DNA of 59,330 bases, filler included, from Catajapyx aquilonaris (Eukaryota), in NCBI GenBank assembly GCA_000934665.2. It is 3 parts of 3 records of this genome, joined end to end, with 100 filler letters (N's around TTAATTAATTAA, not from the genome) between each part and the next. Parts side by side here need not be neighbours in the genome. Positions count along the whole stretch, not along the records: positions 1 to 19,719 come from JYFJ02006403.1; 2 more parts are not named here. One strand, given 5' to 3'. Below are positions 948-31,414 of this stretch, piece after piece. Within the stretch, counting starts at the first letter, position 1. Each line of letters starts with the position of its first letter. The notes below the pieces were generated by a model. The model was not told the origin of the DNA, ran no database searches, and saw nothing but the letters and a program-made list of their open reading frames with translations. A program made the position numbers and the translations under genes.

Positions 948-2387
948 GCTCCTGTTTATGAGGACAAAGAAGACATTGAGCAGTCCTTTTCTGATCTGAG
1001 TAACTCTGGGGATCAGTATATTCCTATACGTGACTCAGATGACAAGACCTGTGGTGTCTTGAAGAGGAAGAGGAAGAATCGAAGAGGGAAGGTGTGTGTT
1101 GCCATATTAATTAGGGGCCATTTAAGGTTGCAATTTGTCTTTAGGGGAAGGGTGAGTTATTTCTGACTCCTAAGACAGTTCGTCATTCACATGTCTATGA
1201 GGCGAGAGTGGGAGGGAGAGGAAGATGAGCATTACATGGGTGAAAATGTGGCAAAAGCACATAACCAGATCAACCCATAAAATGGCATCAGCTGTGTTCA
1301 TAGTCAACACTGATTGTGAACTAGCTCACTCTGTACTAAAATACCTAGGCAAATGCTGTCCAATAGATAAAAGCCAATGCTTCACAGTTGAAAGTTGAAA
1401 AATTTGACTGAAAGAGAGCCCAATGTGTGCAAATGTATGAATTCTACACCTGTCCATCATGTGGCTCCTGCCTTGGAATTTGGAGTGTACCGCTGTTCAA
1501 AGATGAGTATTTTCTTGCTTAAGCTACCTCTTGATTCAAGATTGCCTTTGAGCTGTGGTGGTGGGAAAGGCCATATTTTCATTGATTTTGCTTGCCATGA
1601 TTGGATCAATGAACAACACTAATACAGTTTAGAATGTGTGTTTAATTTGTGCAGTAGTAATGTTGCATTTTTTTAAAAGGGTAACTGCAATATGCAATCA
1701 GCTAAAACAAATACATCGAGAACCACTGGAGACTTCCATATGGATGCTGCATCTTCAGATGATTTGTGCGTGGGCTTGAAAAAGAAACCAAGGGAAGAGA
1801 CAGCAAACAAGAAGAAGCCAGGAACAGTCCACACTCAAGTGAAGCAGAAGTTGACTGGTCATGAAAGACTCAGATCTGATGGTGGACCTTACTCATGCAG
1901 TGATTGTGATAGGCGTTGTACTACAAAGGATGGGTTACAAAGGCATTACAGGGAAGTCCATCTTGGTGTGAGGCCTTACTCATGTGACATGTGTGACAAG
2001 AAATTTGTTAGGAAGTATCACATGGTTGATCATAGGAGGAGTCACACAGGAGAAAGGCCATTCCAGTGTGAATGGTGCGAAAAATGTTTTTATTCAAGTT
2101 CTCATTACCAGGTTCATGTTCGGATTCACAAGGGATTGAAACCATTTCACTGCACCACTTGTGGCAAAAGATTTGTTCAGTCAGGACACTTACACTCTCA
2201 CATGTTAATTCACTCAGGCGAGAAGCCTTTTGAATGCAGTACTTGTGGCAAAAGATTTGTTCGATCAGGAGACTTACACCGGCACATGTTAATTCACTCA
2301 GGTGAGAAGCCTTTTGACTGCAACATTTGTGGGAAACAGTTCAACCACAAACGCTCAATGCACCGCCATATGAAATTAGTCCATTAG
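948..2387 (+). CDS. C2H2 zinc-finger protein A, last two coding exons (6 fingers); 5' exons outside window
   Basis: Exon 948-1091 (ttgcag|GCT...AAG|gtgtgt; alternative phase-0 donor gtgagt after 1151) encodes an acidic stretch plus KRKRKNRRGK. Exon 1680-2387 (aaag|GGT...TAG) encodes six C-x2-C-x12-H-x3/4-H fingers with TGERPF/SGEKPF linkers. Confidence 0.9.
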
Positions 2388-3369: not shown

Positions 3370-3720
3370 CAAGCCATCTTGATGTGACGCCTAACTCATG
3401 TGACATAATATTTATTTGGAAGTCACATATGGAAGTTCACAGAAGAATTCACAGAGGAGAAAAGCCATTCTAGTGCAAAGTGTGCGAGAATTATTGTTTT
3501 TTTAAAGTTATAGTTACTGCTATCATGCTTGGCTTCACAATGGATTGAAACCATTCCCTTGCATCATTTGTGGGAAAAGATTTGCATAATTATTCAACTG
3601 ACTTGCAAAGACATATACTATTTCACACACGTGAGAAACCAATGTAAATATAACATGTGGGTAACTGTTCAACCAAAGGGGAAATGTGAAGAGGTATGTA
3701 AAATCCATGCATTAGGCAAA
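3370..3720 (+). pseudogene. Decayed zinc-finger exon, paralogous to genes A/B
   Basis: Colinear similarity to 13420-13850 (catcttgatgtgacgcctaactcatgtgacat; tatttggaagtcacatatgg; cacagaggagaaaagccattctagtgc; ggattgaaaccatt; tgtgggaaaagatttg) with stops and frameshifts. Confidence 0.75.
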
Positions 3721-4422: not shown

Positions 4423-4553
4423 GTGGCCCCCGTGGACCAGGATGGATGGGAACAGCAACGACGCGGGTGTCCTGAGGGAGATCTTGTCTCGGGTGATCTC
4501 ACTGGAGAGATGGGCCAGGAATGGAGGGTACAGAGGGCGTGGAGCAGGACAGG
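4423..4553 (+). pseudogene. Diverged, frameshifted copy of the ZF-family first coding exon
   Basis: gtggcccccgtggaccagg resembles ATGGCCCCCGTGGACCTGG. A shifted frame reads VLREILSRVISLERWA. It ends in G|gtgagt and is followed by the same intronic motif (acaagtggt...ggctgccaacc) as the copies at 6410 and 16330. Confidence 0.55.
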
Positions 4554-5097: not shown

Positions 5098-5521
5098 ATT
5101 TGCCTGAAAATTGTATATGTTGTAGCCCAGACCATCCTGATCAATGTTGGATAGGGACATTACGAGGTAGGATCTACAGGGAGCATGCTAATGGCCTCCG
5201 AAGGTAATAGGGGGAGTAGTTCGTAGACTACAATAAATCTCAGGAACTCAATAATGGTTATTGCATTAAATTATCTATTAATCTTTATTACCTATTCATC
5301 TGGTTCAAATTCTACTTCTTGAAGGTTGTCATCTGGAGTTTCCTCCAGCTGCACTTCAACATTCATTGTAAGGAAGTGAGGTTTCTCTCACAGCAGTCTT
5401 CTAGCCTCTTCGATGAATAGCAATTAGCATGCTCCCTGTAGGTCCTACCTCGAAATGTCCCTAATAATCCAACATTGATCAGGATGGTCTGGGACACAAC
5501 ATATCCAATTTTCAAGCAAAT
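5098..5521. mobile_element. MITE-like inverted repeat (~95-bp arms)
   Basis: 5098-5191 (atttgcctgaaaattg...gggagcatgctaat) matches the reverse complement of 5423-5521; no clear TSD. Confidence 0.7.
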
Positions 5522-5938
5522 CGAACGGAAGGCCACTCGCCCATATATTTTGTGCCTCATCCTTTCTCCAGGTAGGACCACTTATGAGTTTTGGTGTGTC
5601 CACAGATTCCTTGGATCACTCGTAAGTTTCATGACATGCTTATGGAGATGTTTGTAGGGGATTGAAGGTTGCAAAGGATGATGGAAATCATAATTGGAGG
5701 CAATTGGAGGGAAATACACACCTCATTGCCAGAGCTGTCGATGTCGCCGCTCCTCTGTTGCTGGAAGGCAACTGTCCATGCAGAATTTTTACTGTACCTA
5801 ATTTGTAACCTGTTCACTTGAGATGAGACCCTTATTATCCATATCACACTGAGGCCTGGAGCCACCTGCGCAGCTGAAATCATGGCCCACTTTATAATTT
5901 GGAACTGATTTGAGTTGATAAGGTTCAGCACAACTTCA

Positions 5939-6050
5939 GCGCTATCCGTTCCGTATTAGTTCTTCACAGTCGCTGCTTTCCTTGGCCCCAACAGCTACGC
6001 GACATTCTCCCCCCCCACCCCTGAATCCAACATGGCGTCCGTTGCGAGAA
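5939..6050 (+). promoter_or_regulatory. Conserved putative promoter/5' leader of ZF gene B with YY1-like CAACATGGCG motif
   Basis: Closely matching block at 15880-15985 upstream of gene C (gcgctatccgttcc...ctgaatccaacatggcgtccgttgcgag). In B the ATG within the motif opens only a 10-codon ORF. Confidence 0.5.
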
Positions 6051-6174
6051 TTTTCTCTTCTTGAGACGATTGTTGGTCCGGATTGTGGAGGTGGAACAGG
6101 GTTGGATCGAGTCACAAGTTGTCTATTTCTAATCAAGGGAGTTGCAGAGAGTAGTCTCGATAGGGGAAGGAGCC

Positions 6175-9100
6175 ATGGCCCCAGTCGACAGTGAGTTGGT
6201 GATGGAGATGACAACATTGTCCGTGAAGCGTCTTATCCTGGAGCTGATCCTTCCTCGACTGGACTCGCTGGAGGATGGTGTGGGGGCCCTGAAGGAGTGG
6301 GCCTGGTGTGGCGGGTGCAGAATAAGTGGAGAGGAGGAAGAGGGTGAGTTGAAGGAGGACTTGCAATTTTAAAAAAGAGGGATTTCGACAAGAGGCGCTG
6401 TTGTTGTAAGACAAGTGGTGGTCGCTTTCCAATCAGGGCTGCCAACCCTCTCAAATTAAAATCAAATGTAATTATTCCCTAACGAGCTACAGGTATACCA
6501 TAGGGTATAGGGTATACCTCTCGCCATAGTGAAAAAGTTGGACCCTCATATTGCTCTCTGAACATACCTTGCCTTCCCAAAGTTGCCTTCCCATGCTGAC
6601 GTGCTCAATGACCACCATTCCCATATTATATCCCATGTAAAAGCCCTCTGTGGGTCACATGTGAACGAGAGTGCTGAGAGTCAGGGTTTGACTGGAATGC
6701 GCTTTACCTCTTCAGCTGCAGATGATCCAGGAAACTCACCATCTGAAGATCTCACTAGTTCAGTTGATGCTCAAGTTGAAAATGGAGATTCCGTGCCTGT
6801 GGACAGCATCGAAACTGAGCTGGACCAGTGCAAGGAGGAGGAGGAGGTCATAGTGGAGAATGAAGGACCACAAGAAATCCACAGCTGGGTGAGGATGACT
6901 GAAATTGCTCATTTATAGGGTATGGCTAGGTCAAATGAAATGGCCAGCTCAAATATCTAAGGGGTATGAGACGTTATGGTGCAACTGAGTCATATTTTTG
7001 GAGCGCAAACATAGTACATATCCATGCTGTAAACTAAAGTGCGGAAAGCCAAATTACCATATGATGTCATCGTTTCTTACATTGTTCCTTTTTGTTGCTA
7101 CTGTTTACTCATATTGTTGATTGTTGATGACCAATCAAATTTACTTATAATTTCATTGTGCAATGAAATATTAAGCTGACCAGTGTTGCTACAGATGACA
7201 TTTTTCAATCCAGAGTTTTTGTTTAACCTTAACAATGGTAATGACCTTTCCTATTTAATGGTAGAATCAAGACTGGGGATCCAAAGGAGACAGGACATCC
7301 ATAAACATCAGTGAAATTGCTGTTCCCTCGAATGAGATTCAGTCCGATACAGAAGCACTAGTTGGCAATTCGGCAAATGCAGGTATGATTGTGATGCACA
7401 CAGTGTTTCTCATAATTAACATCGGATAAGTTGTAGGTATTTATCTTTGACATACAATATGGTACTGTATGTTGTAGTGTTTATGTAATGCTAATTACCT
7501 CAGATACTTGACTGCTTGGACTAAATAGCATTGCTGCCAAAAGCATTCCCTTGATGCCCAAGAGTGCACCTTAGATGTTTATTGTTGGCCCGGGTTATTT
7601 AATATCAAAGGCAATGATTGGCGCATCTCCTTGACAAACGTCTGGCCAGAGGAACATGGCTCTTCTATCTGGCCAATCACAGACGGGCGCTCCCCCGCGC
7701 CACAGGAGAAGTGTTGCATGCCCTTGTACTTCTGTATACCCTTGATACAGTACCTGGGATACAGTGCTTTCCAATCTTTTTCGTCGGCGACCCCAAAAAA
7801 ACCGGCACTCAAAATTCGCGACCCTCCTGATGTGCACACTCCTGATGTGCGTTATTATTGCCACGTACTAGGCCTACCTATACCAGAAGAATGAAGATAA
7901 TAATTATAATAAATTGCTGGTAGGGCATGCGGGAAGGGGGCAGAGGTGGGTAAAGGAGAAATTAATATTCATTGTACTAATTTTCCATACAAATATGATT
8001 TATTGCCATATGAAAAACATCTCCAAAAACCTCTGCAAAAACCAGACGGTAAGGAGGAAATGGAGTTTGAGGAAATATTGCACGTATTTACTGAATTTAT
8101 TAGTAAATTCAGCCCAAAATAACTTTCACCATCAGTATGTGTGATCCAAGTTATTTTGAGCTGAATTTACCACAAGAACCGGTTTCCCTAACAGTATTTC
8201 TTCTAACTCCATTTCCTCCTTACCTTCCGCTTTCTTACATTTTTTTTTTTGTTTCCCTCTTTTTCTGCACAGAAAAAAACCTATTCTGCTTTACTATGTT
8301 GGAGTTCCCCCCCCCCCCCACCCCCCTATCCTTCTCCTAAAATTGAAAAATATGTGTCCTCCCTACTTTAAGCAAATTCCTTGCTGCCTGCACATGCTCA
8401 ATGACACCTTTTGCCACCGTCTCACTGGTACTGGATAATTCCTCGTGTCATGTAGTAACCCTTGGCATACATCATCTACTTTTCTTTTGACTGACTCCTT
8501 AGCATTACCCCTGTCGCCAAACACGTTCCTCGTTTGCACTATTTCTTTGTGATATTCCCTATCTTCTTGCAAAGTGTCTATTGTCATGCCAATCATGCTT
8601 GAGACAGTGTGGGGTTGTTTGCCAAATACACAATGTATGTGCTTTCACAGGTTACCCTTAACCAAATTATCAGAACAGGTGCATGAAACATTATGGATGC
8701 ACACATGACATTCATCACACATCATAGAGTAAGTAAGCCCTTTGCACAATAATTGATCTACATTTTTTTCTTGGACTGTGTGTATTTTCCCACTTCCTTC
8801 CTCTGACACCTGCGACGTCATTTCCTCACTGTTCATGATACACTGCAACTTACAATTAGAGCCCTCTTTATGTTTTCGTCTTGAATCCGCAATTTTGGAC
8901 GTTAACTTGCCCATCTCCAATTTAATTTTGGCATCAAATTCTTTGTCCAGTATCAATTCTTCCAGCACAGCGATGCACTTATCCACACGCTTACACTTCT
9001 TAACCCCCATGTACATGTACTTCAGTTTCTGGTGGTAAGACTCCAAGAACATATTCGTATTAAGTCGAGCTCCTTTTTTGAAGCAAAAAAAAACCGTGTC

Positions 9101-12100
9101 CATGATGAGCACATGCTGAGACGACAGATGACAGACAAGTACAAGGGCATGCCACACTTCTCCTGTGGCGCGGGGGAGCGCCCGTCTGTGATTGGCCGGA
9201 TAGAAGAGCCATGTTCCTCTGGCCAGACGTTTGTTCTCCTTGTAACTGCCTCCTCCCCATTTAAAAGGAAGGAGTGAATAGCATTCTTTGAAAATATAGA
9301 GATTATTATTTGCAGAAGTACAGTTTAATGTCATTGCATTTTTGCAGGTGGAGAAGCAGCCTCAACATGTGGCCACGACCATCCTGAAGAAGATCCCCAA
9401 TGCTCCACACTTGATGGGGGAGACTCGCATCAAGATGCACAACTTGGGAGCAGGCAAAACACTGTGGTATGGGAAGAATACCACACATTTTTCCTTATCA
9501 ATTTGGTAGTGACACAAATGTTGAAGAAAAATGAACAATGTTTACTTATGCAGATATGAAATATTGTTAGATAAAGAGTAATACGTTTTCCTCTGTGATG
9601 GTAGAATCAAGACTTGGAAGCAGAAACCAGATTTTGTTTTACATTCAAACTGTGCTTCTGAGACATGTAAAAAAATATACAGGGAGTAAATGAATTCAAA
9701 AGACAAAGTTCTAGGGGTGATAGAGGGGACCAAGAAACACATTGTTCACAGAGGAAACCGTGTCCAGAAACGCCATCTAGAGGGGGTTCATAGACAAGGA
9801 ACGGGTGCGATCAGACGTGTCAGGCGGGCGGAGTTAGCAAGTTGACTGTTTAGTTGCTAGGTGGCTAGCGGATTGTACACAACTTAGCAATTGGCAATAA
9901 CCTGGCAACAACAGAGCCACTTAGCAACTAAAGTCAGCATGCTAGGTAGCGCGCAGATAATAAGCAACAACTTTGTTGTTGCCAGGTTATGGTGAATTGC
10001 GAAGTTGCATACAATCCGCGCGCCACCTAGCAACTAAACGGCCGCTCCCTAACGCCGCCCACCTGACGCGTCTGTGCGCACCGTTCCTTGTCTATGAACC
10101 CCCTCTAGATGGCGCTTCTGGACACGGGTTCCTATGTGAACAGTGTGTGTCTTGGTCCCCTCTATCACCCCTAGAACTTTGTCGTTTGAATTCATTTACT
10201 CCCTGTATATTGTTTTACGTATCTCAGAAGTACAGTTAGAATGTAAAACCATTACAATTGATAAGTGAATAGGACTCTGAATTGGGACTTAGTTCACGGA
10301 TGGGGGATTCTGGAAGTGGAAAGTGGTGTAACTTGGACTTCGGAAGTGATTTTGTATGATGATATCTTAGGCCACACTATTATTTACTACCCTTAGGGTG
10401 CTGCTTCAGAAGTCTCCAGTGGCACTGAACCTGATGGGGATGTCTGGATGAATCCATGCCATCGGCTGCAGCTGACCCATCAAGTGACCCATCTCCTGGC
10501 CCAAGCGGAAGGGTGACCAGGAACAAACGAGCATCTGTGAGTGATGTTATGGTGAAAAAAAGGAAATGTTTTCTATTTTCAACAGTGAGGACGACATTTT
10601 TTGGCTACTTTGCAAAACTTGGATTCTTTATTCAATATTAAAATATTAAGGATCTATTATATTTTACCAGTAATTTGCAAGCAATATGTTGATAGACAGC
10701 ATTGCCAAGTTTGTATACCATTTCCAAAAGACACAAACTTATGCTGTGTTGTTCCCAGCCGTGAAATAATTCCATTGTAGAACTTGAACACTATACACTA
10801 TACACTGTGGAAAACCAAACTACTGTCTGATGTCCTCGTTTCTTACATTGTTGCTTTTTGGTGCTGCTGTTTACTCATATTGTTCTGTGAGGGTATATCC
10901 ACGGAAACTTGATGACGTCACATCACTGTTTCGTTTTCCACACTGTATGTAAGGCATATTGTGCATCAGAGTGTGACAGGAAGTCACATAATTAGTTGAG
11001 GGGAACTGCAGGAGATAATTATTGGTAACGGTGCAGTTTAACCCCACAAAAGTTATGCAGGTTTCTATATATTTTCTGAATCCACTGGATGAGCTGAGTC
11101 CAGTGACACTATTCCCAGCAGGGCTGGTTCTGCGGTTTCCAGTGCCCCTTCGCAGCCTGAAACGTGGCACCCTCATGTTTTAAGAAAGCCTAAGCTGTAT
11201 TTACTTACACATGCATTTCTGATGTACAAATACTCCAGGATCACTCAGTCTGTGTTTTCAATGGTCATGACATAAATCAACATTGCAGGTTAACTCTCAG
11301 CGGTAAATATGCAGTGCTCCGTGCCTGGCACAGTGGCTCCCCTTTTCTCTACAGCCCCCGTGCCATGCTTAGCGAGCTAAGTGTGTTGCGCCGGTCCTGA
11401 TTACTAGTGTTGGGAAATGTTTGGTTCAAGAGGAATTGAATTTTGAAATTGCAAGTAATAACAATCAATAAATGAAAATAAACAACTGTTCCTTTGTTGA
11501 AACAGTTTACTCCCATTCCTGAGGGAAGGCATCTACATGGTAATTTTACTCGTAATGTGGCAGTTGTGTGTACACAGCATTACTGTCTGCATTGTGGTGG
11601 CGTAGATGCGGGTGTTGCGTGATGTGGGTTTGACAAATCCACAATAAAGTTCGTTGGCCTGCGGCACCACAAGACGGACAGTAAATATCACGGATTGAAA
11701 ACTCACAATAAGCGCCTAACTCTGCTATCGCTCCTCATGAACTGAAATTATTAAATAAAATGCATGGGCGAAGTACCATTTGTGACAAAGCTACAGGATG
11801 GATGGTACTTGTGCGATCACTCCAATTCCTCACAGATAACACCAACACAATGCCTTGAATATTTTTAAAAATGCCTCGGCCATGAATGCTCCTGAATGAT
11901 GTTAAATTAAAGTCTTACACTCTAGTTGTATATCCAACAAACCAAGAACAACCGTTTATATACGTCATTAAGCATCCCTCACAGCACTTTGCCATGGCAG
12001 CTATCACAGTTCCATGGAGAATCACATCATGCAACAATGGGAGTGGACAGTTTAAACAAAGGAATACTTGTTTACTTTCATTTTATTCATTATTGTTATT

Positions 12101-13884
12101 ACTTGCAATTTCAAAATTCAATTGCTTTTGAACCAAGCATTTCCGCACTCTCGGAATAGTGTCATTCGATTCAGCTCATCAACCAATGATACAGAAACCT
12201 GCAAGATTTTTGTGGGGCTAAACCTGCACCGAAGCCTAATTATTGCTACAATATAAATTTATGTGGGTCATTTAGAACTTAATATGCACATCCCAAGTCC
12301 ATCCCTAGTAGCAAAGGATTGTGTGGATTTAGATCCTCTTTATCATTGATTTTACATGTTGCAGGCTCCTGTTTATGAGGACAAGGAGGACAGTGAGCAG
12401 TCCTTTTCTGATCTGAGTGACTCTGGGGATGAGTATATTCCTCCAAGTCGCTCAGATGACAAGACCTGTGCTCTCTTGAAGAGGAAGAGGAAGAAACGAA
12501 GAGGGAAGGTTGGTGTTGCCATATTAATTAGGGGCCATTTAAGTTTGCAATTTGTCTTTAGCGGAAGGGTGAGTTACTTCTGACTCCTAATGCAGTTCGT
12601 GATTCACATATTTGAGGCGAGAATGGGAGGTAGAGGAGATGAGCATTACATGGGTGAAAATGTTGGAAAAACCAGATCAACACACAAAACATTATCAGCT
12701 GTGTTCATAGTCAACACTTCATGTGAACTAGCTCACTAAAATACCTAGGCAAATGCTGTCCAATAGTTAAAAGCTAATAGCTTCACAGTTGAAAGTTGAT
12801 AAATTTAACTGAAAGAGTGCACAAGTACAAATGTTTGAATTCTAAGCCTGTCCATCATGTGGCTCTTGTCATGAAATTTGGAGTGTACCGCTGTTCAAAG
12901 ATGAGCTGCTGATTTTGGCAGATCAGACTTGAACATAATTATTATGCTGAGAACATTTTTATGTCGGTGGGAGTATGTTCTGGCTTAAGCTACCACTTGA
13001 TTCAAGATTGCCTTTGAGCTGTGATGGTGTGAAGGCTAGATTTTAATTGATTTTGCTTGCCATGATTGGATCAATGAATAACACTAATTCAGCTTAGAAT
13101 GTGTCTTTCATTTGTGCAGTAGTAATGTTGCATTTTTTAAAAGGGTAACTGCAACATGCAATCAGCTGAAACACATTCTTCAAGAACCACTGGAGACTTC
13201 CATATGGATGGTGCAACTTCAGATGATTTGAGTGTGGGCTTGAAAAAGAAGCCAAGGGAAAAGACAGCAAACAAGAAGAAGCCAGGATCAGTCCACACTC
13301 AAGTGAAGCAGAAGTTGACTAGTGATGAAAGACTCAGGTCTGATGATAGGCCATACCCATGCAGTGATTGTGATAAGAAGTATACTACAAAGTGGGGGTT
13401 ACAAAGCCATTGCAAGGATGTCCATCTTGGTGTTAAGCCTTACTCATGTGACATATGTGACAAGAAATTTATTTGGAAGTCTCACATGGTTGTTCACAGG
13501 AGGAGTCACACAGGAGAAAGGCCATTCCAGTGTGAATGGTGCGAAAAATGTTTTTCTCCAAGTTCTCATTACCACCTTCATGTTCGGATTCACAAGGGAT
13601 TGAAACCATTTCATTGCACCACTTGTGGCAAAAGATTTGTTCATTCAGGACATTTACACCGTCACATGTTAATTCACTCAGGTGAGAAGCCTTTTGAATG
13701 TAGCACTTGTGGCAAAAGATTTGTTCAGTCAGGACACTTACACCTGCACATGTTAATTCACTCAGGTGAGAATCCTTTTCAATGTGGCACTTGTGGGAAA
13801 AATTTCAACCTAAAAGGTAACATGCAACGCCATATGAAATTAGTGCATGGGCAAGGCATCAAGTTGCATATTAAGAGAAAATGA
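6175..13884 (+). CDS. C2H2 zinc-finger protein B (N-terminal module, acidic linker, 6 fingers)
   Basis: Phase-consistent open model: 6175-6343 (phase 1), 6716-6888 (0), 7265-7382 (1), 9348-9466 (0), 12365-12508 (0), 13144-13884, all GT-AG. Candidate exons at 9605 (interrupted by a foldback element) and 10397-10550 (apparent frameshift) must be skipped. The finger exon is certain; internal exon use is inferred. Confidence 0.75.
7634..9234 (-). mobile_element. Internally deleted DNA transposon with MULE/SWIM-type transposase remnant
   Basis: 98-bp TIRs (7634-7731 / 9137-9234, starting ACAAACGTCTGGCCAGAGG) and an exact 8-bp TSD TCTCCTTG (7626-7633, 9235-9242). Minus strand ~8363-9100 reads NTNMFLESYHQKLKYMY..KRVDKCI...CTCSDNLVKGNL*KHIHCV, a SWIM CxCx(n)CxH motif with Cys changed to TGA. 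Confidence 0.8.
9636..10249. mobile_element. Foldback / palindromic MITE (~615 bp)
   Basis: Left half (gttttacattc...tatacagggagtaaatgaattc...ttctaggggtgatagaggggacc) is the reverse complement of the right half over nearly its full length; no TSD found. Confidence 0.8.
11024..12236. mobile_element. Non-autonomous Merlin-family element
   Basis: Ends GGTAACGGTGCAG and revcomp GGCTTCGGTGCAG; exact 8-bp TSD TAATTATT (11016-11023, 12237-12244); subterminal sequence shared with the element at 34500-37225. Confidence 0.85.
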
Positions 13885-14295
13885 ATTTTCAAAAATCCCA
13901 AGACAGCTTCAAACTTTGTGGGAATTGTTACATATTCGTCATACATCTGGGCATTGGATTTAAGGCAGTCTCATTATTCACCATATTTTTAACCAGCCCC
14001 ACTAATTTGGTTCAATATCATCAGGACTGATATGCAGTCTGGAGATTTGTAATTAAAGCCAGATAGCTCTACTGATGCAAGTGTTATGGTAGTCTAATGG
14101 AGATGTTTGCAGGGCGATTTGAGACTGCAAACAATGCCATATACTGTATACATAAGTGGACGGAAGTATGCACACCTCAATGGCAGAGTTGTTGCCTCCT
14201 TTGTTGCCACATTGCTATGCAGGTTATCTGAAAAGTTTGTTGAAAATTACTTAGCATGGCAATCCATTTATTACCAATTACACTAATACGCAAGG

Positions 14296-15302
14296 TTTTG
14301 TTGTTTTGAAATGGAAATGTCTATCTGAATGGATTTTCTCTGCAGATTACGAAAATGGCATTGAAAATCTCCTATTACGTCCAGTTTTCGAGTTACAGGG
14401 TGTGTCATAAATTCATGTGGGTATGTCCACATGTCCAGTGCATAACCTCGATGGAGTTGACCTACAGCAACGTCCTTACACCACATTGTTGTGACACTCA
14501 TCCTTGTTACCACCACCAATATTCATTCCGATTGCATCATTCCACTGGGAGTTATGCACCTCACAAGGTATAACAGTGTGGGTCCGAGGTGCATATCGTT
14601 GAACTTGCGGTCATTATATAAAATCATAATTAAGTATAATTAATCGAGAAAACATTAATATTGTGATGTTGTACGATGAGTAGGTGGCGATGCTCTATCA
14701 TACACCATCATCAAATAAAGTGCAAGACAATTCAAGAGGGATCAGGACCATTTGGAAGAGACCTCCACCCATCCACAAAATGAGTAGTGTTGCAAACTTT
14801 GCGCCTTCCCGATAAATTGCCGTTGTGCATGGGAGGGGATCTCTTCCAAACACTCTTGATACGTCTGGAAATGTTGGGCACTTTATTTGATTATGGAATA
14901 TGACGGAGCATTGCCACCTACTCATTGTACAATATCACAATGTTATCTCGATTAATTCCATAATTATGATTTTATATAATGACCGCAAGTTCACAGATAT
15001 TCACCTCCGACCCACACTTTTACACCTGAGGTGCATAACTCCCTATTGGAATGATGCAATCGGAATGAATCTTGGTGGTCGTAACAAGGATAAGTGTCAC
15101 AACAATGTGGTGTAAGGACGTTGCTGTAGGAGTGTAGGTCAACTCCATCCATGTCACACGCTGCACTTGTGGACATACCCAAGTGAATTTATGACACACC
15201 CATTAACTCGAAAACTGGACGTAGTAGGAGATTTTCAATGTCATTTTCGTAATCTGCAGAGAAAATCCGTTCGGATGCGGCTGTTTATTTCAAAACAACA
15301 GA
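14296..15302. mobile_element. Long-TIR non-autonomous element (~410-bp arms, ~190-bp spacer)
   Basis: 14296-14705 matches the reverse complement of ~14895-15302 (e.g. ctctgcagattacgaaaatg / cattttcgtaatctgcagag). Confidence 0.75.
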
Positions 15303-16120
15303 CAAAAAATGTCAAAAAAAATGCAGATCAGTGTTATTATTTACAAGTTCACTTGCAACTGTACCTACTGAGAAAGCCCATCATTATTTCACCTCAAGAC
15401 ATATGGTGGTGACTGTTCAATTCATGTTGTTTTAACAAGTGTAGAATATCCTTATTCCACAGCACAACCCAACAATAATTAATTTTTGTCATAGCATAGA
15501 AAATGTATCGTTGAATAAATAAAAGCTCTCAATGTCACACTGACTTTGAGTTTCCCTTTTTTTTTGTTTGCCCTGTTTAGATCAAATCAATCATAATAAT
15601 TTTACGAATATGATTTTTTAAATGGTTTTGATGAATTTCTCTGCAGCACATATGCAAAATGATGACAGTTATGTTGATATGAATGCCGAGAGAATTGTCA
15701 TGAGCAAATGCAACAGTATTCCAGCCTGAACAATGTTCTTGTGATCCATTCTAGCAACAGAAAAAGTGTCTCAAGAGCATCACACAGAGAATTAAGAATT
15801 GATGATCCATGGGAGAGAATGATGCCCTTTTAACGTTTTGCAAAAGCCATAATTTAGGGAATCGCATCTTTCCCATTAAGCGCTATCCGTTCCATATTAG
15901 TTCTTAACAGTAGCGGTTCCTTGACCCCAACCGCTACGCGATTTTATCCCCCACCCTGAATCCAACATGGCGTCCGTTGCGAGGATTTTCTCTCTTTGAG
16001 ACGTTTGTTGGTCCGGATCACGGTCCGGATTGTGGTTGGAACAGGGTTGGTTCGAGTCATAGGTCGTCAAGTTCTGTGTCGGGTAGTTGCAGAGGGGAGA
16101 CGATAGAGGAACAAGCCAAC

Positions 16121-17887
16121 ATGGCCCCCGTGGACCTGGAGCTGATGATGGAGACGGTCTTGGTCACGAGACGTCTCCTGGAGCTGATCTTGCCTCGACT
16201 GGAGGCACTGGAGGAAGGTGTGGGGGCCATTAAGGAGTGGGCCTGGTGTGGGGGGTGCCGCATCAGTGAAAAGGAAGAGGGTGAGTTCAAGGGGGAATTT
16301 GACATGATGTGATGTGGTTGTACTGTATGACAAGTGGGGGCATTCCAATCAGGGCTGGCAACCCTCTCAAATTAAAATCAATCGTAATAATAATATGCCA
16401 CGTCTGCCATAGGGTAAAGACTCTTCAGTTGCAGATAATCCAGGCAACTCACCTTCTGAAGATCTCACTTGTTCAGTTGATGCTCAAGTTGGAAATGGAG
16501 ATTCCGTGCCTGTGGGCAGCATCGAAGCTGCAATGGACCAGTGCATGGTGGAGGAGGAGGTCAAGGTGGAGAATGAAGGACCACAAGAGATCAACTGCTG
16601 GGTGAGGATGACTGAAATTGCTCATTTATTTGGTATGGCTAGGTCAAATGAAATGGCGAGCACAAATATTTCAGGGATATGATACCTTATTGTGCAATAA
16701 CGGACTGAGTCATATTTTTGGATCATAAACATACTACAAATCCATGGTGTAAACTAACTGGTATTACTCGGTTTAATTGTAAAATACCATTATAATGACT
16801 CAATTAACTCTAAAGAGGTGGTCAATGTCAATGTCAATCTGGTCAAAACAGTCATGATGAGAACAGAAATTTCCAAATGCCAGCTGTGTAAAGTCAATTT
16901 TTCATTGTTTGCAATGGAAGTGAAATAATTGTTGATGACCAATGGAAATTGCTTACATACCAATTTCATTGTGCAATGAAATTTGTTGACCAGTGCGACT
17001 ACAGATGGCAAATTTTCCATTACAGAGTTTTTGTTTAAAGCAAATATGAAATATTGTTAGTTAACTAGCAAAGTGTTTCCCCTTGTAATGGTAGAATCAA
17101 GACTGTGAATCTGAAGAAGAGAGAACAGCCAGAAACATGGGTGAAACTGGTGCCCTCTTGTGTGCGATTCAGGCGGATTCAGATGTCAAAGTTGGCAGTT
17201 TGGCAAAAACAGGTATGGTTGGCATGCACACAGGTTTTATCATCATTGACATCATAACTGACAAACGCCCAGGGTGAAATGCTGTGGTACTGGAGGGTCA
17301 CTTCATGTAGAGATGTCATTTTGCCTTGAAGTGTTAAGCATGATGATGAATTTTGCTTGTAAGAGGCAATGGGAATAATCACAGAAAATGCGTACAAGCA
17401 CAGAGGAAAGTCCTCATTGCTCTTCCCATAATATGAGTAGATTATCTGCTCCACTCAGATATTGAACTCTGGCTGTAGAACTATATGGCTGTGGTGTACC
17501 GGCGTACTAGAACTATGATCATGCCAACATGCTGTTCTTTTTACAACTCATATTGAAGAAAAACCAGGGGTAGTTGCGACTTATGATGATGAGTTGGACT
17601 GAAAAGTCTGTTATTATAGTGTTACACCAACACCTACTCTATTTGTGACATGTGTACTTGCCAAGTAAACGAGATTCCTGCGGGTCACAGGGACTGGAAT
17701 GTGCTTTCCCTTTTCAGTTGCTGATGACATTCCAGGCAACTTTCCTCCTGAAGCTCTCACTTCAGTCAATGCTCATGTTGAAACCGGAGATTCTTTGCCT
17801 GTGGAAAACATAAAAGCTGAATTGGACCAGTGCAAGACAGAGGAGGTGACGGTGGAGGATGAAGGACCACAAGGAATTGGCAGTTGG
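16121..17887 (+). CDS. ZF-family gene C, 5' exons only (finger exon not seen before the gap)
   Basis: Open, phase-consistent exons 16121-16280, 16429-16601, 17095-17212 and 17718-17887, paralogous to gene B exons 1, 2, 3 and a second copy of exon 2. Confidence 0.7.
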
Positions 17888-19700: not shown

Positions 19701-19719
19701 ATCATCATTTACTTCACGG

Positions 19720-19819
19720 NNNNNNNNNNNNNNNNNNNNNNNNNNNNNNNNNNNNNNNNNNNNTTAATTAATTAANNNNNNNNNNNNNNNNNNNNNNNNN
19801 NNNNNNNNNNNNNNNNNNN
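19720..19819. other. Artificial contig linker
   Basis: 44 N + TTAATTAATTAA (stops in all six frames) + 44 N; identical to 39527-39626. Confidence 0.95.
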
Positions 19820-20311: not shown

Positions 20312-20588
20312 TGCAATTCGTTTTTCGCTACGCGGAACGGTAAACCCAGGGCGAGGTGTCAAAGTGTGTCGTCTGGTAATGAGCGGCGCCGCCACGCGGG
20401 GAACTGGAGGGCTGCACCGCTCTGGGATGGGCCTAGCTAAGCGCGCGGGCAGGCGGGAGCAGCTCTCCAGTTCCCAACGTCCCGAGGGCGTCGTTGGCGG
20501 TCGGCCAGCTTCTAGCGCACTATTTGAATTTCCTCAATTTGACCCCTCGCCCTGGGATTACCGTTCCGCGTAGCAAAAAATGGATTGC
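20312..20588. mobile_element. Small GC-rich MITE (~50-bp TIRs)
   Basis: tttcgctacgcggaacggtaaacccagggcgaggtgtcaa matches the reverse complement of ttgacccctcgccctgggattaccgttccgcgtagcaaaa. Confidence 0.7.
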
Positions 20589-20969
20589 ACCTTCGGATTC
20601 ATGATTCTTTGCCCGATTTTTAGAGCTAAACTTGTTTTTTGAGTGGAGTGTCCCTTTAAGTGCTTCTGCATCCACATCAGCAAAAACCCAATTAAATGTC
20701 ACTTGAGCTAACTCCATCACAGGCTTAAAGATTTAACAGTAAATGATTGCAGTAAGTAACAGATGGAATTAGAGCGATGGAGAGGATCTTGAAAGGCAGA
20801 ACGATATTTCTCAGTTTTCCAGGAAAAGTCCTACATTAATTTATGACATGTAGGAATCAATTCACTTAACTCTAGGAAAGGTGCTTTTTCTTTGTCGTTC
20901 AGAAACCGTCAGAAGTAGAATATAACTACAGAGATAAGGTCACAGTCGGAACGTCGTAGTTCGGTTATT

Positions 20970-22460
20970 ATGAGACGAATATCTACTGTGATTCAGGTGG
21001 AAGAGGCCAGACACTCTGAAAAAGATGACCCCATGAAAGAGGAAGACGCGTTTTGGACAGCGGTCAGACCACTGGCCATGTTGGCCACCTTCGGAGGAAT
21101 CGCTCCTTGTCCATGGCCCAGGAAGGAGGAGAGTTGGAAGTGGCATCATCGGTGGCCTGCAATGGTTCACTTTCTTCTGCTGGCCACGTACATCGCATCG
21201 TTTATTTGGTTCCCATTAGAAGAGTGGCGGAGTAGCAACAAAGCGAGTAAAACGGATTACGTAACATTTATGTTTCTGCGAACAGTCACATTCGGAAGTC
21301 CTTGGATTAATTACATTCTGGTTCAAGCATCTCTACCCAAAATATGGAGGCTCATCCTCCGATTTTCTCGACTGAACATGACACGACACGTAAAGACACT
21401 TCGTCGATGGTCCACGTCGTTAATGATCGCTACTATTGCCTCGCCTCTACTTGTAGCCTCAGTGTATATTTATTTGTATGCCAGAAGTGATGGTGTCCTG
21501 CTTGTACCGAGCAACATGTTCGGCGTATTAATGAAGTGGCACTCCTTAATGATTTTTTATCTAATTCCTGTTGTAATAGTGTACTTGGTTCAAGTTATTC
21601 GGGTTTCGCTGATCGACTGTAACAAGCAATTTGCGCAGGTATGTGCTACTTTAAATATGTCTGCCAATGGGCCGAAGAATTATGACCAAAAATTAATTAG
21701 AAAGCTGACCTTTGCCACTGACCAGTTTCGAGAATTGTGCCTTTTGGTGAGAATCATGAGCAGGACCTTTGGACTGTGCATTGTGGTTGTGTACCTCATG
21801 CTCATTGTATGGGTCACTGGTGTCATGTTTTATTTAGTTATGGTTCCACTGGACAATATATTTCTTAACTGTGATGTTCTTAATCAACATTGGCTTCATC
21901 ATGTCAGCAGCTGCTGCATTCACTGTTATTTTGGGATCGGTTCCACGAGTAGTAAGTATACCACGACAAAAACTCAGATTTGACAGCATCTTCATACATG
22001 ATGCCAAATCTAGTGCATCTCGTAGAATCGATATAGTTCGCAATAAATTAAGGCAATATTTGCCATTTCAGAGCACCTTGTCATTGCCACACCTCATTTT
22101 CGCGAATCGATTTGCCACCGACTTCAGAGTGAAGGCAAACGTACGTATCTCTTCGCAGATTCGCATTCTTCTACAGTATAATTATATTTCAAAACAATAT
22201 ACTCTGCCTCTCCTAAGCTGGATTCACTCATCCAAATGATGAGCAGCGAACCAATGGAAATTACTGCTGCCTATTACTTCACAGTCAAGCGAGGACTACT
22301 CACAGCGGTAATTATTTTACTAAAATGTCGTCTCCAAATTATTTCGTCCAGAGCATTGTCCTAACATGTGTAACATCATATTTTGTAGGTGGCTGGAACT
22401 ATCACAACGTACCTGATTGTGCTGGCACAATTCAGTGGAGGCGAAGATTCCAGTAAATGA
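20970..22460 (+). pseudogene. Gustatory receptor GR-1, single frameshift in exon 1 (pseudogene or sequence error)
   Basis: Exons 20970-21951, 22072-22140, 22218-22307, 22389-22460; C-terminal TYLIVLAQF motif. Homology to paralogs switches frame near 21855-21870. Confidence 0.8.
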
Positions 22461-22563
22461 AGCTGACGGAGATACTCCCGTACCGTAACAGAGAAGAAGG
22501 TTTTGCACAACTACATGTACACCCTCCATACGTAAGTACAAATTCTAGTTTCATAGATCAGAC

Positions 22564-22707
22564 CAAGGGGGTAATCACTCGACTGAAAAGTGTACACTGG
22601 AGTACCAAATTCAAGGAGTACCACGGAGTAATAAAGAGTGAGGTCCCCGAGGAGTACCAGGGAGTACCACTCCCAGGTGTACACCGGAGTACCGAAGTTG
22701 GAAGTTG
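22564..22707. mobile_element. 144-bp insertion with 8-bp TSD
   Basis: GATCAGAC at 22556-22563 and 22708-22715; CAA...TTG ends; internal GGAGTACC repeats; absent from the paralogous site at ~32350. Confidence 0.65.
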
Positions 22708-23263
22708 GATCAGACGTTCAAAATGTATCGGTTACATCATTATATCGAGAATATCGAACACAATGTGTATAGCAATAATTTTTCTTTGTTCTTTTCACGC
22801 ATGAGGGACATGTTACACGAAAGATTTTTCAATAATGAATGACAATGGCTTAGGAAGTGAATAAGAGCCTCTATGCTACTACGCTAGTTAGATATCGAAT
22901 GCCATTATCATTAGGATGAAAAAAAAATGATTTACCACCTTTCGCACTAATATCAATACACACTTGCCATATTTCTCGTCTCCATTGTACATGCCACAAC
23001 AATAAGCAGGCCCATAACAAAAGAGGGCTCAATTAATTGACATTATTCCACCCCACCCGACCTCCTTGGCGCCGATTGCCTTGAGAAGAAGCATTCTGTG
23101 AGCACTTCATGTTGAGGTGCAACGCTAGGTTTATGCGATCGTGAAATTTTGAAAGTTTCATAACCTTTTACTAAAGGATATTTGGAAAGCAATATTTAAT
23201 TTACTGCCATTGCTCTTGCACGTGATAGACCAAACGGTACCTTCAAAAATTATTAATTCGATA

Positions 23264-24770
23264 ATGCCATTCCGAATATCTACTGTGACGCAGGTGGAAG
23301 AGGCCAAGAAGTCAGAAGATACTGCGAAGGAAGACGCGTTTTGGAGCGCGTTCAGACCACTGTCCATCCTGGCCACCTTTGGAGGAATCGCCCCTTGTCC
23401 TTGGCCTAGGAAAGAGGAAAGTTGGAAGTGGTACTATCGGTGGCCTGCAATGGTGCACTTCATTCTGATGGCCACGTATATAGCAGTGTTCCTCTGCTTC
23501 CCACTAGAAGAGTGGAGTGATCAGAAGCGGAATGACAACGGTGGAACAGAAGGGGCAGTGTTCCTGGGTGTGCTTGCAGTCATACACGCAGGTCCTTGGA
23601 TCTGTTACATCCTGGTTCAAGCATCGTTGCCGCAAATATTAAATGTGATCCAGCGATTCTCTCGACTTACCTTAAACCAGCACGAAAAGACACTACGTCG
23701 ATGGGCCACCTCGTTGGTTGTCTTTACCATCGTCTCGCCTGTGCTTTCCCTCTTTACGTCTATACTCAAGAATGCCAGCCAAGGAGTCCTGCTTGTGCCC
23801 AGACACATGTTTGCTGTATTCATGAGGTGGCACAGCTTATTTCTGTTCTACTTAATTCCTGCTCTAATAGTATTTTTGGTAAACATTCTCCGTCTACTGC
23901 TTACTGAATTTAGCATGGAAATCACTGAAATATGTGCTTCGATACGTAAGTCTCCTAATGAACAAAGGAATTATGGCGACAGAATGTCACAAAAGTTGAC
24001 CTCTGCCACTGACCTGTTTCAAGAAATTTGCCCATTGGTGGGATCCATGAGCAAGACTTTCGGAATGTGCATTGTGGTCTTGTATCTCATATTCATCGTG
24101 TGGATCACAACTTTGCTCTTTATTTTATTTATGATGACACAAGATACTTTATTAAATATTGCTTTTTACATCACCATGGTACGCGAAATATCTTCGGCAA
24201 TTGCATTCACTCACATTTTGGGATCTGTTCCACGTACAGTAAGTATTTTAACACTTCAAAAATTACAAATTCCAATATATTCCGACAAAATTACCTGTTC
24301 TCTAAGAAAAACACTTATTGGGACAGGTATTCAGAGATTCACTGAGTTTGAAAGAACTTAACGACAATTTTCATTTCAGAGTACAAGTTCATTACCAAAC
24401 CTCGTTTTCGCCAATCGTGTTGTCACAGACCAGAGAATGAAGGCAGATGTAAATATCCTCTCATTTATTTTTGCAAATACTGTATGTTAGCGTAACATGT
24501 TTTCGAACTAATGACCGTATCTCCTAAGCTGGAATCACTGATGCAGATAATGATCAGCACACCAATGGAGATAACCGCTGCAGATTACTTCACAATCAAC
24601 AGAGGACTACTCACAGCGGTAAATACATAGCTGTCGTTTAAAAATAATGGGAGCGAGATCAATCATGTACTGTATGAGTACATTTGTCACTTACACAGGT
24701 GGCTGGATCTATAACAACATACCTGATTGTCCTGGCCCAATTCAGAGGAGCAGAAGTGTCCAGTAAATAA
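23264..24770 (+). CDS. Gustatory receptor GR-2 (7tm_7), 401 aa
   Basis: Exons 23264-24238, 24380-24448, 24529-24618, 24699-24770. Three C-terminal phase-0 introns, multiple hydrophobic helices, ITAADYFTINRGLL and TYLIVLAQF (TYhhhhhQF signature). Confidence 0.93.
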
Positions 24771-24793
24771 TCCATACTGTATCAGTGATAGAG

Positions 24794-25394
24794 CCTACTT
24801 TTAAAGCGTTAATCCAGAAGATGACAGGTCCTCCCATCCTAGTAACTGCAGCGGGTTACTTCACTGTCAACAGAAGTTTGCTGACGGCCGTAAGTTGTGA
24901 CGACAAAAAGATCTCAATAAATACTGCAATCATTAATAATAATAAAAATAAAAATAATAATCCGGGTAGTGCTTGACCTCATCTGAGGTATATAGCACGG
25001 ACCTTTATTTTTATACTCATATACATTGGAACCTTTATACGTAACGCCCGGGCCCACGGGCAGGATGACAGGAGGGGATGTGCAAGGTGCGGTGCAATGT
25101 CTTTACTTTATGTGGCCATTTTTAGTGAACTCCCCCGGGTGGTTTAGTCTGTAGGAAATACCACCCGAGACGAAGCCAGAGTTGACCCAATGAACTCTGC
25201 ACGAGATGAAGGGGGTGTCCCCGGGCTGGGATCGAACCCGGGACCTTAACATCCGTGGGCGCATGCGTTACCGCAGCGCCACTCCGCCTCCCCTGTTTAA
25301 ATACTGCAATCATTATTAACAGTGACATTATCAGGTTGCTGGTATTGTGGCCACCTATATGATAATTCTCTCACAGTTCACGATCACGGAATAA
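24794..25394 (+). pseudogene. Orphan GR C-terminal exons (GR-4-like exons 3 and 4)
   Basis: 24794-24889 reads PTFKALIQKMTGPPILVTAAGYFTVNRSLLTA|gtaagt; 25335-25394 reads cag|VAGIVATYMIILSQFTITE*. No exon 1 or 2 of their own. Confidence 0.75.
24936..25297 (-). mobile_element. tRNA-derived SINE (same family as 18013)
   Basis: 18-bp TSD TAAATACTGCAATCATTA (24918-24935, 25298-25315); minus-strand head GGGGAGGCGGAGTGGCGCTGCGG...GGTTCGATCCC. Confidence 0.85.
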
Positions 25395-26167
25395 CCATAT
25401 CAACCTGAATCAAAATGAACTCGATAATTGCCATTATAATTCCCTCATGACATGTGCGTTGCATTATTATTGTAATTGCATGCAATTATTTACCCTTACT
25501 GTTCGGCACTTTATGACGTCACCTTATTGTTGATCGAGGGTGGAGCCTGAGTTGACCCTTAGTATTATAATCATGTCCAAGTTAATCACAAACTACCTTA
25601 GGTGCACCTTTGTGTCCTCATTGCTGCGTAGTACAATATGCCATCGTAAATTATTGCTTTGACAATTGTTATTACATCACCATGGCTGACCATGGATAGG
25701 AACCTACTTACAACACAATGCGGCTGTACATTGAAGAAAAACTTACAGTACATTTGTTTCTTTGTCTTTTGTGTAGGTATATAGTATCTCTTACAGTTAG
25801 CCACCTTTGGAGGAATCGCTCCAGGAAAGGGCAGAATTGGAAGTGGTATTTCATTTTTCCTGGCCCTGAATTAGTCCGGTTTATCAGCAGCTGATCAATC
25901 ATTAGAATAAAATGACACCAAGAGGTTATTGTTATAATCATTCATATGATTATGATTTAAATGCAAATATTTTGAATACCGCATGATTAACAATTATATT
26001 GTGATTAATAAATATTATTGTTACTATTAGTGATGTTGTTGTTGTCGACGTCATTACTCTGGTAACTAATCTCTGGTAACCAGAACACATATCAATGCCA
26101 TTGGTCTTTACTCCTCTTTAATGTTACATTCATATTGAAGGCCTAATTGTTATAATTCCCTTGTTGT

Positions 26168-26456
26168 GCCGAAGCAGTGGTAGCGGAGGGGATATGGTAT
26201 CCGACTGCTAATCGGGAGGTCCTGGGTTCGAATCCCGGGGGCCGCTGACCCTGACCGTGGTTTTCGGTGGTTTCCCACGGTCCTTCCAGGAAAATTCCGG
26301 GGTCGTGTCCGTAATTATAGGCCAGAGCCGCTTCCTTCCGTCCCTATCCCATCCCCATATACGAGAAGTAAAAACGAAAGTAAGAGTTCCTGATTTTTAA
26401 AAAATGGTCGTATCCCACCCCCCTAACAGGGCCCATGGCTCTAGCACGGGGTACAA

Positions 26457-26539
<83 letters not shown>
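26168..26539 (+). mobile_element. tRNA-derived SINE with (TTA)n tail
   Basis: B box GGTTCGAATCCC; 15-bp TSD TAATTCCCTTGTTGT (26153-26167, 26540-26554); empty paralogous site at ~38308. Confidence 0.9.
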
Positions 26540-26543
<4 letters not shown>

Positions 26544-27157
26544 TCCCTTGTTGTCATTTTTCTTCTTCAACGTATGGTGGTTGCGGCAACTGGGCGTAAC
26601 ATTACAAGACTAGTAAACCGTATGGATGTGACATGCACACTCAAAGGAACAATCCCTATTTGAGCGACACATGTCTCGGACAAAGTACCGGTATCAAAAT
26701 TCATCAGAAATCAGCAACTTTAGTAAATTGTAATTATAAAATAATTAGCCTACATCAAATTAAAGTAAATAACTCTAGAAGCTTGTAATGGGAATCTAAT
26801 GCAGACATCCCGCAGTTACGTAAATGGATCGTTCCCAAAAGGTAAGACGAAAGGTCATGCTTAATATTCCGTGTATGACACGCATAATTAAGTGACGCAA
26901 GTTAGTCCATTAGTTGTAATGGAATTCGGTTCATCTGTTAAGCTACCTACAGGGATATGCCGATATGTCTCTCTGCGCACTTTCTTCTGACAGGACAAGG
27001 GCACAGCGGCCTGTCATAATGCGTGTTAGTGATTTTTCATAATGGGTGGCGCATTACAGTTGAACAAAATGCATGGTCCAAGTTAGGAGAGTTCTTGAAT
27101 GCCGTATAAGTGACAAATTCTGGGTAGGAAATACACACACAAGGAAGTGTATTCACG

Positions 27158-28662: not shown

Positions 28663-29197
28663 TCCATAATGTATCGGTGAAACTTTCGAGCAATTTCATA
28701 CCTAATGCCAGGTGAATTTCAAAGAGCTGACAGTAGCATAAAAATGTTCAGAACAGATCTGCAGTTATAATAATCACCAGTTTTAAACTCTGTCTACAAG
28801 TGTTATACATGCACGGAGTGTACATGATGGTCACCTAACTCCATTATGACCAATTATGATTATGGTGGTCGCTTTGCATTTTGTACATGTCGTACATTTT
28901 GTACATGTCGTACACGCTGCAGCTTGTTGTCTTTGCAGTAATTATTTTTTTATATTCCCAACGGGTTGGTTATTTTTCAAATGATTTCTTGGGATAAAGC
29001 GCCTTAACCCAATATTGAACTTGGCGCAAGGTCAGTGAATAATCTTAAACAAAGTTGATGAGTCACATAAATCAACACTTTTTTGCTGTTTTACTATTCA
29101 TAAGGGCGTAGTCATCTCCGAAGCGACAATCAATGAACGCCTGCAGGTATTGGACAAACTTCTGCAATGAGTAGTGCAGACAAAAAGAGTGAGCAAA

Positions 29198-30658: not shown

Positions 30659-30865
30659 ACGTTGCCTAACTACATTGTGAGCAAGTATGATTTTAGGAGT
30701 GTAAAAATGTTCTGACACTGAGAAAGATAATTATTCATATATATTCATATAATTATCTAATACACCAATGCGCGCATACTATGTAAATTATGTACGAACA
30801 GTATTTTGATATAATTATCGCCTCTATAACTTACAGGTTTTGACTATTAGTAATGTCACTTACAG

Positions 30866-30935
30866 GTGGCTGTATTTGTCATGCAACGTACCTGATTGTC
30901 CGTGCCCAATTCAGAGTTGCAGAGGAGTCGATAGA
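30866..30935 (+). pseudogene. Decayed GR last exon
   Basis: cacttacag|gtggct... followed by a shifted-frame TYLIVRAQFR. Confidence 0.65.
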
Positions 30936-31414
30936 GATCTTAGGGATAGTGTTAGTCCCACGTGGTTTCACATTATTGGAAAAACCTCTTCTCATTATAT
31001 TGACCACGTGCATATGACGGAGGTGACATTCCCTTACTTATTGTTTGCATAAAATTGATTCACCGGTTTAGTGTAGTCTAGTGTCAAGTAGATTATTTTT
31101 CTGATGTCCACTTCTATATTTTCTGTATTATTGAATTTTTTTGTACTTTAGAATATTTGTAGAATATGTACTATTTTGCACCATTCCCTTCGACACGCCC
31201 ACTTCCCCATTTTTGTGGGGAGGGCATATATATACCGGTCCTTCTCACCACCCACATTACCCCTCCTGCTAACTCTACGGAGTGTAACGGTACATTGGGA
31301 GTCAGGGGGAATAACGCACATGGGTTGGCTAATAACTATAGTATATTACAATATGATACATAAATACAGTGAGAAGGAGTAGGAAGGAAGAAGCTGCTCT
31401 TTATAGCAGTATTG

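Follow-up and report, generated by a model that had tools for sequence, protein, structure and literature searches.

What is the short peptide that opens two clustered zinc finger genes of Catajapyx aquilonaris, and could it be a domain in its own right? The question arises from a window (the whole stretch of DNA analyzed, 59,330 nucleotides from assembly GCA_000934665.2) that joins three genomic pieces with 100-base spacers at 19720-19819 and 39527-39626, so that adjacency over a spacer is meaningless. Gene A and the two genes with intact copies of the peptide, B and C, all lie on the first piece, a contig ending at 19719. We call this peptide, encoded by a first exon of its own, the "head". 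The original prediction, made from the DNA alone, was that it defines a zinc finger family and may be an undescribed, lineage-specific effector or dimerization domain. The cluster is best explained as tandem C2H2 transcription factor genes whose products run from head through a long acidic linker and a basic tract to six fingers, and our verdict, drawn from sequence, is that the head is real, uncatalogued, and modestly constrained. We further propose, with a probability of roughly 0.55, that the first exon of genes B and C encodes a short coiled-coil self-association module, most likely a parallel trimer, with its cysteines probably sharing a metal between chains.

Gene models and the link between head and fingers

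Translation of 6175-6343 (gene B) and 16121-16280 (gene C) returns the predicted head peptides, both on phase-1 first exons that end at GTGAGT. Gene B provides one complete model, in which six exons with canonical splice sites and compatible phases encode an open frame of 487 residues, and five of the six have boundaries common to a paralogue (exons 1-3 with gene C, the last two with gene A; Table 1). Behind the head, residues 52-225 form a linker of 27% aspartate plus glutamate, followed by the tract KRKRKKRR and by six C2H2 fingers, which match Pfam PF00096 over six stretches (E 1.3e-25) and are arranged in tandem with TGEKP-type linkers. We infer from the exon phases that the head exon of gene B is spliced to its finger exon; the link is drawn from these phases and from an arrangement, seen twice, in which a finger exon is followed by a shared flank and then by a head exon (3374/4106/4423 and 13144/15403/16121).

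Gene B supplies the only one of the three heads in the window, two intact and one decayed, that is tied to a finger exon. In gene C, one open frame of 207 codons runs through exons 1, 2, and 3 and through a copy of exon 2 that arose by an older duplication, and is followed by repeats and the contig end, with no finger exon downstream of the head up to position 19719; the 5' part of gene A, including its first exon, falls beyond the window. The idea that the head defines this zinc finger family has one complete gene model behind it, in which the splicing of head to fingers is predicted. Diversification of the fingers, noted originally, is evident between genes A and B, whose introns are 9% different. 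Of the 24 base-contact sites (positions -1, 2, 3, and 6), 15 are changed, versus 18 of the 141 remaining sites (p 6e-7), and fingers 1-3 and fingers 4-6 each show this excess when taken separately.

Predicted structure and proposed role of the head

Heptads run from L22 to A43 of the gene B head, with L22, I25, L29, L32, V36, L39, and A43 at the a/d positions (about three heptads), and C45 and C48 form a CxxC at the end of the predicted helix. An RhxxhE motif lies in register in all three head copies (RLDSLE in B, RLEALE in C, and RVISLE in the decayed copy), while composition shuffles hold the motif, in any register, in 4.5% and 7.9% of cases. AlphaFold2, given an alignment of only two sequences, predicts a single helix over residues 6-44 (mean predicted local distance difference test score 79.9). 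The hydrophobic share is 41% in exon 1 versus 17% in the linker, and W42 and W44 of the WAWCGGC end lie outside the a/d core. No head copies besides B, C, and the decayed one occur in the window.

We infer coiled-coil formation, the trimeric state, and metal binding from these features. Through its roughly three heptads the helix would pack against its counterparts in other subunits, most likely in a parallel trimer specified by R28-L29-x-x-L32-E33; the cysteine pair at the helix end would probably brace a weak coil by sharing a metal between chains, a sharing proposed because one CxxC cannot bind zinc alone. In published work, RhxxhE salt bridges stabilize parallel trimers (PMC5940361), RhxxhE is a strong trimer determinant in short coils (PMC3653964), and the motif is present in the trimerizing DUF3669 head of zinc finger proteins (bioRxiv 10.1101/2025.03.01.640934). 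Self-association in some form seems likely, and the trimer itself has about an even chance. The original suggestion of a dimerization or effector domain is plausible as regards oligomerization, given the heptads and RhxxhE, and finds no direct support as regards a KRAB-like effector role.

Binding would gain avidity through oligomerization, and paralogues with fingers for different DNA could join in mixed complexes; the acidic linker would space the finger arrays, the fingers would supply a changing DNA specificity, and the basic tract KRKRKKRR is a likely nuclear signal. A bolder version, which we regard as doubtful, holds that an independently arisen, DUF3669-like trimerizing coil with an inter-chain cysteine metal clasp extends across several clusters, with fingers under diversifying selection, as one of several unrelated heads employed side by side in this genome; paralogues would then form mixed trimers with a combinatorial DNA specificity.

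Conservation and selection

Genes B and C are young duplicates: of the 510 non-coding sites in their alignment, 67 differ (0.131; range 0.12-0.16). The core of the head, L22-S51, differs at 4 of 30 residues, and, as had been claimed, all of the changes are conservative (D/E, S/A, D/E, L/I); residues 12-21 are weakly conserved and contain a 2-codon indel. The 12-residue run described as invariant, KEWAWCGGCRIS, is indeed identical in B and C, but it is within chance: in a neutral simulation run at the measured non-coding difference, a run of at least 12 had P = 0.16-0.28 and at least 39 of 51 identical residues had P = 0.40. We therefore reject this run as proof of function for duplicates so young. 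Overall identity is equally high in exon 2 (45/57 residues) and exon 1 (41/53).

The distribution of differences among codon positions is more telling. Over 41 unambiguously aligned codons of exon 1, a set that omits 10 to 12 poorly aligned codons around the indel and the acidic tail, differences fall 7/1/11 by codon position (p 0.003), compared with 6/6/5 in exon 2 and 8/14/10 in exon 3. Second positions differ at only 1 of 41 codons (p 0.023 versus the non-coding rate) and at 0 of 30 in L22-S51. In exon 1 the ratio of nonsynonymous to synonymous change (dN/dS) is 0.32 (Fisher p 0.0045); exons 2 and 3 have values of 0.72 and 1.7, respectively. Purifying selection on the head exon, which the original prediction needed, is thus indicated by both the 7/1/11 pattern and the dN/dS of 0.32; coming from a single pair, it seems real but modest. 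The most constrained part is L39-S51, the last 13 residues (dN/dS 0.12, p 0.011), a stretch picked after viewing the data.

Between B and C, linker exon 3 (7265-7382 and 17095-17212) has changed at more than the neutral pace, with 14 of 39 residues identical; rapidly evolving linkers are reported for ZAD-ZNF genes (PMC7655104).

The decayed head predicted at 4423 is confirmed by homology to the intact heads over the 5' flank and leader, the exon, and the following intron. It has an in-frame ATG at 4442, from which 37 codons are open to a phase-1 donor at 4554, and its differences look neutral (9/6/5 by codon position versus B, 10/6/5 versus C; 21 codons). Its 21-base deletion removes exactly one heptad, leaving the frame and RhxxhE in place. 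This copy could in principle splice to exon 2 and so give B another functional first exon, which we judge unlikely because of the neutral substitution pattern and because it has 0 of 3 promoter-region motifs common to B and C.

Homology searches

The predicted mismatch to ZAD, KRAB, SCAN, BTB, and THAP held in the family profile searches: no Pfam family matched either head, or exon 2, at E up to 10, and separate scans of exon 3, exon 4, and the second-last exon gave no family at E up to 1. KRAB, SCAN, BTB, and THAP families are represented in Pfam. The four-cysteine arrangement of ZAD is absent: only C45 and C48 are paired in the first 310 residues of B, the other cysteines (95, 161, 172, 228, and 244) being single. 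NCBIfam and PHROGs returned no family for three peptides, and 0 of 96 candidates matched one of the head peptides within longer proteins at E up to 1. A two-sequence head profile searched against 1.84 billion proteins gave no true relative, the single match at E 9.6e-4 over 15 positions being rejected as a repetitive protein of 276 residues without the helix. Of the pattern matches, 0 of 95 in metagenome contigs and 0 of 10 in viral contigs were confirmed, and the ESM Atlas, where recognition was low, gave no usable head match. Foldseek of the predicted head, a model built from two sequences, found no match in the PDB, and VIA-align found generic helices only (best Z 4.9), which is uninformative on the fold and cannot exclude a family.

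Such blanks are weak, because the linker of the finger exon matched one distant fish protein and a neighboring receptor matched 0 of 2962 candidates. The lineage is poorly sampled, and the lack of matches therefore means "uncatalogued" rather than "young", lineage-specificity being inseparable from poor sampling. Among the matches listed in literature searches there was no paper describing this head, and of 13 papers with "WCGGC" the 10 listed are unrelated, judging by their titles.

Weighing the interpretations

A number of observations count against a constrained, self-associating coil. The three head copies are related, so RhxxhE is one observation rather than three, and the motif also occurs in dimers and antiparallel trimers (PMC3653964). 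The coil is short, and P27, G35, and G37, present in both copies, are expected to weaken it; the cysteine end is unstructured and of low confidence in the AlphaFold2 model from the two-sequence alignment. The leucine-rich amphipathic pattern originally described survives as hydrophobic a/d heptad positions and is unremarkable as a helical hydrophobic moment, which exceeds shuffles in only 1 of 5 segments (p 0.044; others 0.21-0.79). As to selection, R19-S51 taken alone gives a dN/dS of 0.47 (p 0.21) in what is a single pair, and part of the signal lies in exon 1 third positions, which at 11 of 41 exceed the non-coding rate (p 0.014). Exon 2, when set against its older duplicate, likewise shows constraint (dN/dS 0.27, p 0.0008), and exon 1 is therefore not uniquely conserved. 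Finally, a 140-nucleotide candidate exon with good splice sites breaks the frame of gene B if included whole, and the frame is kept if it is skipped or if weak internal donors at 10441 or 10483 are used; gene B may therefore be a sound gene, the product of faulty assembly, or a gene broken so recently that it counts as a young pseudogene.

These points leave room for other accounts of the head. It could be a docking helix for a co-repressor or co-activator, KRAB- or FiNZ-like and not mainly self-associating, with the W-A-W-C-G-G-C end in the binding surface. We consider this unlikely, since the regular a/d pattern and the in-register RhxxhE point to a coiled coil, and none of the SUMO, PxVxL, PxDLS, and WRPW motifs occurs in the first 310 residues of B; nevertheless, a first exon of its own, a tandem cluster, and fast-changing finger contacts are the layout of KRAB and FiNZ genes (PMC10547256), the post hoc constraint on L39-S51 and the tryptophans outside the a/d core would suit a binding surface, and insect tandem zinc finger expansions without KRAB and KAP-1 are described with partners unknown (PMC6444547). 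Docking and self-association are in any case not exclusive. The role could also be the same with another stoichiometry: two chains would share a single Zn(Cys)4 site that closes a dimer, as in the Rad50 zinc hook or in a minimal ZAD. The Rad50 hook sits at the tip of a two-armed coil, whereas the head as modeled has one helical arm and no such hairpin. With one CxxC per chain a dimer would have exactly four ligands, Rad50 homodimerizes via zinc at such a site (PMC5093744), and all ZADs homodimerize (PMC7913770), although RhxxhE favors trimers in short coils (PMC3653964); we hold this form, too, to be improbable.

The head might, less plausibly still, be no distinct domain at all, exon 1 encoding an ordinary N-terminal segment that looks conserved through the recent duplication, with B and C possibly decaying. 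The low non-coding divergence and the neutral-compatible values for exon 1 identity and the invariant run would allow this, as would the frame-breaking candidate exon of B, the absence of a finger exon in view for C, and two decayed pieces in the cluster, but the scarcity of second-position differences, with none in L22-S51, and the hydrophobicity of exon 1 relative to the linker speak against it. Most doubtful of all is a captured fragment, taken either from a transposon (a coiled coil of the ORF1 type) or from a thioredoxin (its WCxxC strand-loop). DUF3669 derives from L1 ORF1p (bioRxiv 10.1101/2025.03.01.640934), and CR1/L2 ORF1 carry coiled-coil and zinc finger/leucine zipper parts (PMC4120745); here the head exon shows no likeness to any transposon sequence in the window, and the profile search yielded no true relative. 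The sole PDB sequence matches were two thioredoxins (E 0.79 and 0.86, residues 32-50), a nonsignificant likeness that we reject as chance; the AlphaFold2 model lacks a strand, and the residues after WCxxC are acidic linker with no Pfam match.

Flanking sequence and neighboring genes

The features of the zinc finger cluster are collected in Table 1. Upstream of both intact heads, CAACATGGCG (6028-6064 and 15963-15999), which we take to resemble a YY1-type promoter motif, opens a 10-codon open reading frame (ORF; MASVARIFSS in B, MASVARIFSL in C) with a strong start context and out of frame with exon 1, which could be a regulatory upstream ORF. In each of the three head copies, intron 1 contains a conserved block, CAATCA(G/T)GGCTGCCAACC, at 66-86 bases from its start (4620, 6430, and 16346).

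Table 1. Coordinates of genes A, B, and C, of the decayed pieces, and of the head motifs in the window
Feature	Position	Strand	Remarks
Gene A second-last exon	948-1091	+	Acidic, basic tract at end; 91% nucleotide identity to 12365-12508, same splice sites
Gene A last exon	1680-2387	+	Linker and six C2H2 fingers
Decayed finger exon	3374-3720	+	Stops and frameshifts
Decayed head exon	4423-4553	+	GTG replaces first ATG; 21-nt deletion; both cysteines lost; RVISLE kept
Gene B putative promoter and 5' leader	5937-6174	+	Conserved with gene C; CAACATGGCG at 6028, 10-codon upstream ORF from 6032
Gene B exon 1	6175-6343	+	Head; 169 nt; phase-1 GTGAGT donor
Gene B RhxxhE motif (RLDSLE)	6256-6273	+	g-a-b-c-d-e register; R28 at g, E33 at e
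Gene B CGGC	6307-6318	+	
Gene B exon 2	6716-6888	+	Acidic linker; phase 1 to 0; boundaries common to gene C
Gene B exon 3	7265-7382	+	Linker; phase 0 to 1; fast evolving
Gene B exon 4	9348-9466	+	Linker; phase 1 to 0; without paralogous copy in window
Gene B candidate exon	10397-10536	+	140 nt; good splice sites; frame broken if whole
Gene B second-last exon	12365-12508	+	KRKRKKRR (resembling a nuclear localization signal); phase 0 to 0
Gene B last exon	13144-13884	+	Linker and six C2H2 fingers
Gene C putative promoter and 5' leader	15877-16120	+	CAACATGGCG at 15963, 10-codon upstream ORF from 15967
Gene C exon 1	16121-16280	+	Head; 160 nt; phase-1 GTGAGT donor
Gene C RhxxhE motif (RLEALE)	16196-16213	+	
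Gene C CGGC	16247-16258	+	
Gene C exon 2	16429-16601	+	
Gene C exon 3	17095-17212	+	
Gene C older exon 2 duplicate	17718-17887	+	In frame; last exon before contig end 19719

Mobile sequence is present both in and around these genes. Intron 3 of gene B holds an insertion (7634-9234) with 98-bp inverted ends (98% identical) and a near-perfect 9-bp flanking repeat, and with a minus-strand ORF remnant (8645-9361) that resembles a piece of a Mutator-type transposase but has no Pfam support. Long palindromic or inverted-end elements of up to 1 kb, resembling miniature inverted-repeat transposable elements, lie at 5098-5521, 9636-10249, 14299-15300, and 20312-20589, and an ISXO2-like transposase fragment lies at 35142-35678 (PF12762, E 7.6e-7). 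Interspersed repeats are common to the first and second pieces. On the second piece (20919-34424) lie five genes in tandem that resemble gustatory receptors and begin with a long exon. The first receptor ORF is similar to gustatory receptors of arthropods in the ESM Atlas (score 0.96, with 7tm_7 on 42% of cluster members), and the receptor first exons had no Pfam or sequence match; this likeness and the repeats common to both pieces fit an arthropod source.

Comparison with known systems

The best reading of the locus is that the head works like ZAD, SCAN, BTB, and DUF3669, in a layout like that of FiNZ and KRAB genes, and, judged by the defining features compared, belongs to none of ZAD, DUF3669, and KRAB. 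ZAD-C2H2 genes (PF07776) likewise form arthropod tandem clusters and combine a cysteine-containing, probably oligomerizing head with a variable linker and fingers, but ZAD has four invariant cysteines that bind one zinc within the chain and has a fold of about 70-80 residues with two helices and a sheet of two strands (PMC7913770, PMC7655104), while the head here has two cysteines after a single predicted helix and no Pfam match. Rad50 offers a parallel for a single CxxC beside a coiled coil with zinc only between chains (PMC5093744), although it is a different protein class, and metal binding by the head is a prediction.

With respect to layout, the FiNZ-ZNF genes of cyprinid fish also place a short N-terminal module on its own exon, are expanded in one lineage, and have adaptively evolving fingers; the FiNZ module, however, is a glutamate-rich stretch of 28 residues directly upstream of the finger exon, in hundreds of genes and with knockdown data (PMC10547256), whereas four exons lie between head and finger exon in the gene B model and two intact copies are in view. 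The ZF271-like/APEZ genes of Hemiptera resemble the present cluster as tandem insect C2H2 clusters with pseudogenes, high turnover, and no KRAB, and they are reported to have no domain beyond the fingers (PMC6444547), whereas the genes here have a constrained head. For most tandem zinc finger expansions of arthropods, ZAD genes aside, neither a head nor a partner is known. A private head with variable fingers is a well-known design, represented here by two young copies, but a short, readily produced peptide with a clear prediction, trimer versus zinc-bridged dimer, would let one test directly how families of this sort come to oligomerize.

DUF3669 is a likeness that bears on a trimerizing coil: an N-terminal coiled coil with RhxxhE precedes the C2H2 array and is proposed to form homo- and hetero-trimers, although it has 10 heptads, two motifs, and a KRAB partner, is restricted to amniotes, and is L1-derived (bioRxiv 10.1101/2025.03.01.640934). 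The head of genes B and C differs in having about three clear heptads, one RhxxhE, a CxxC, no KRAB, and no Pfam match, and, if it does self-associate as proposed, it would represent convergence with this vertebrate head.

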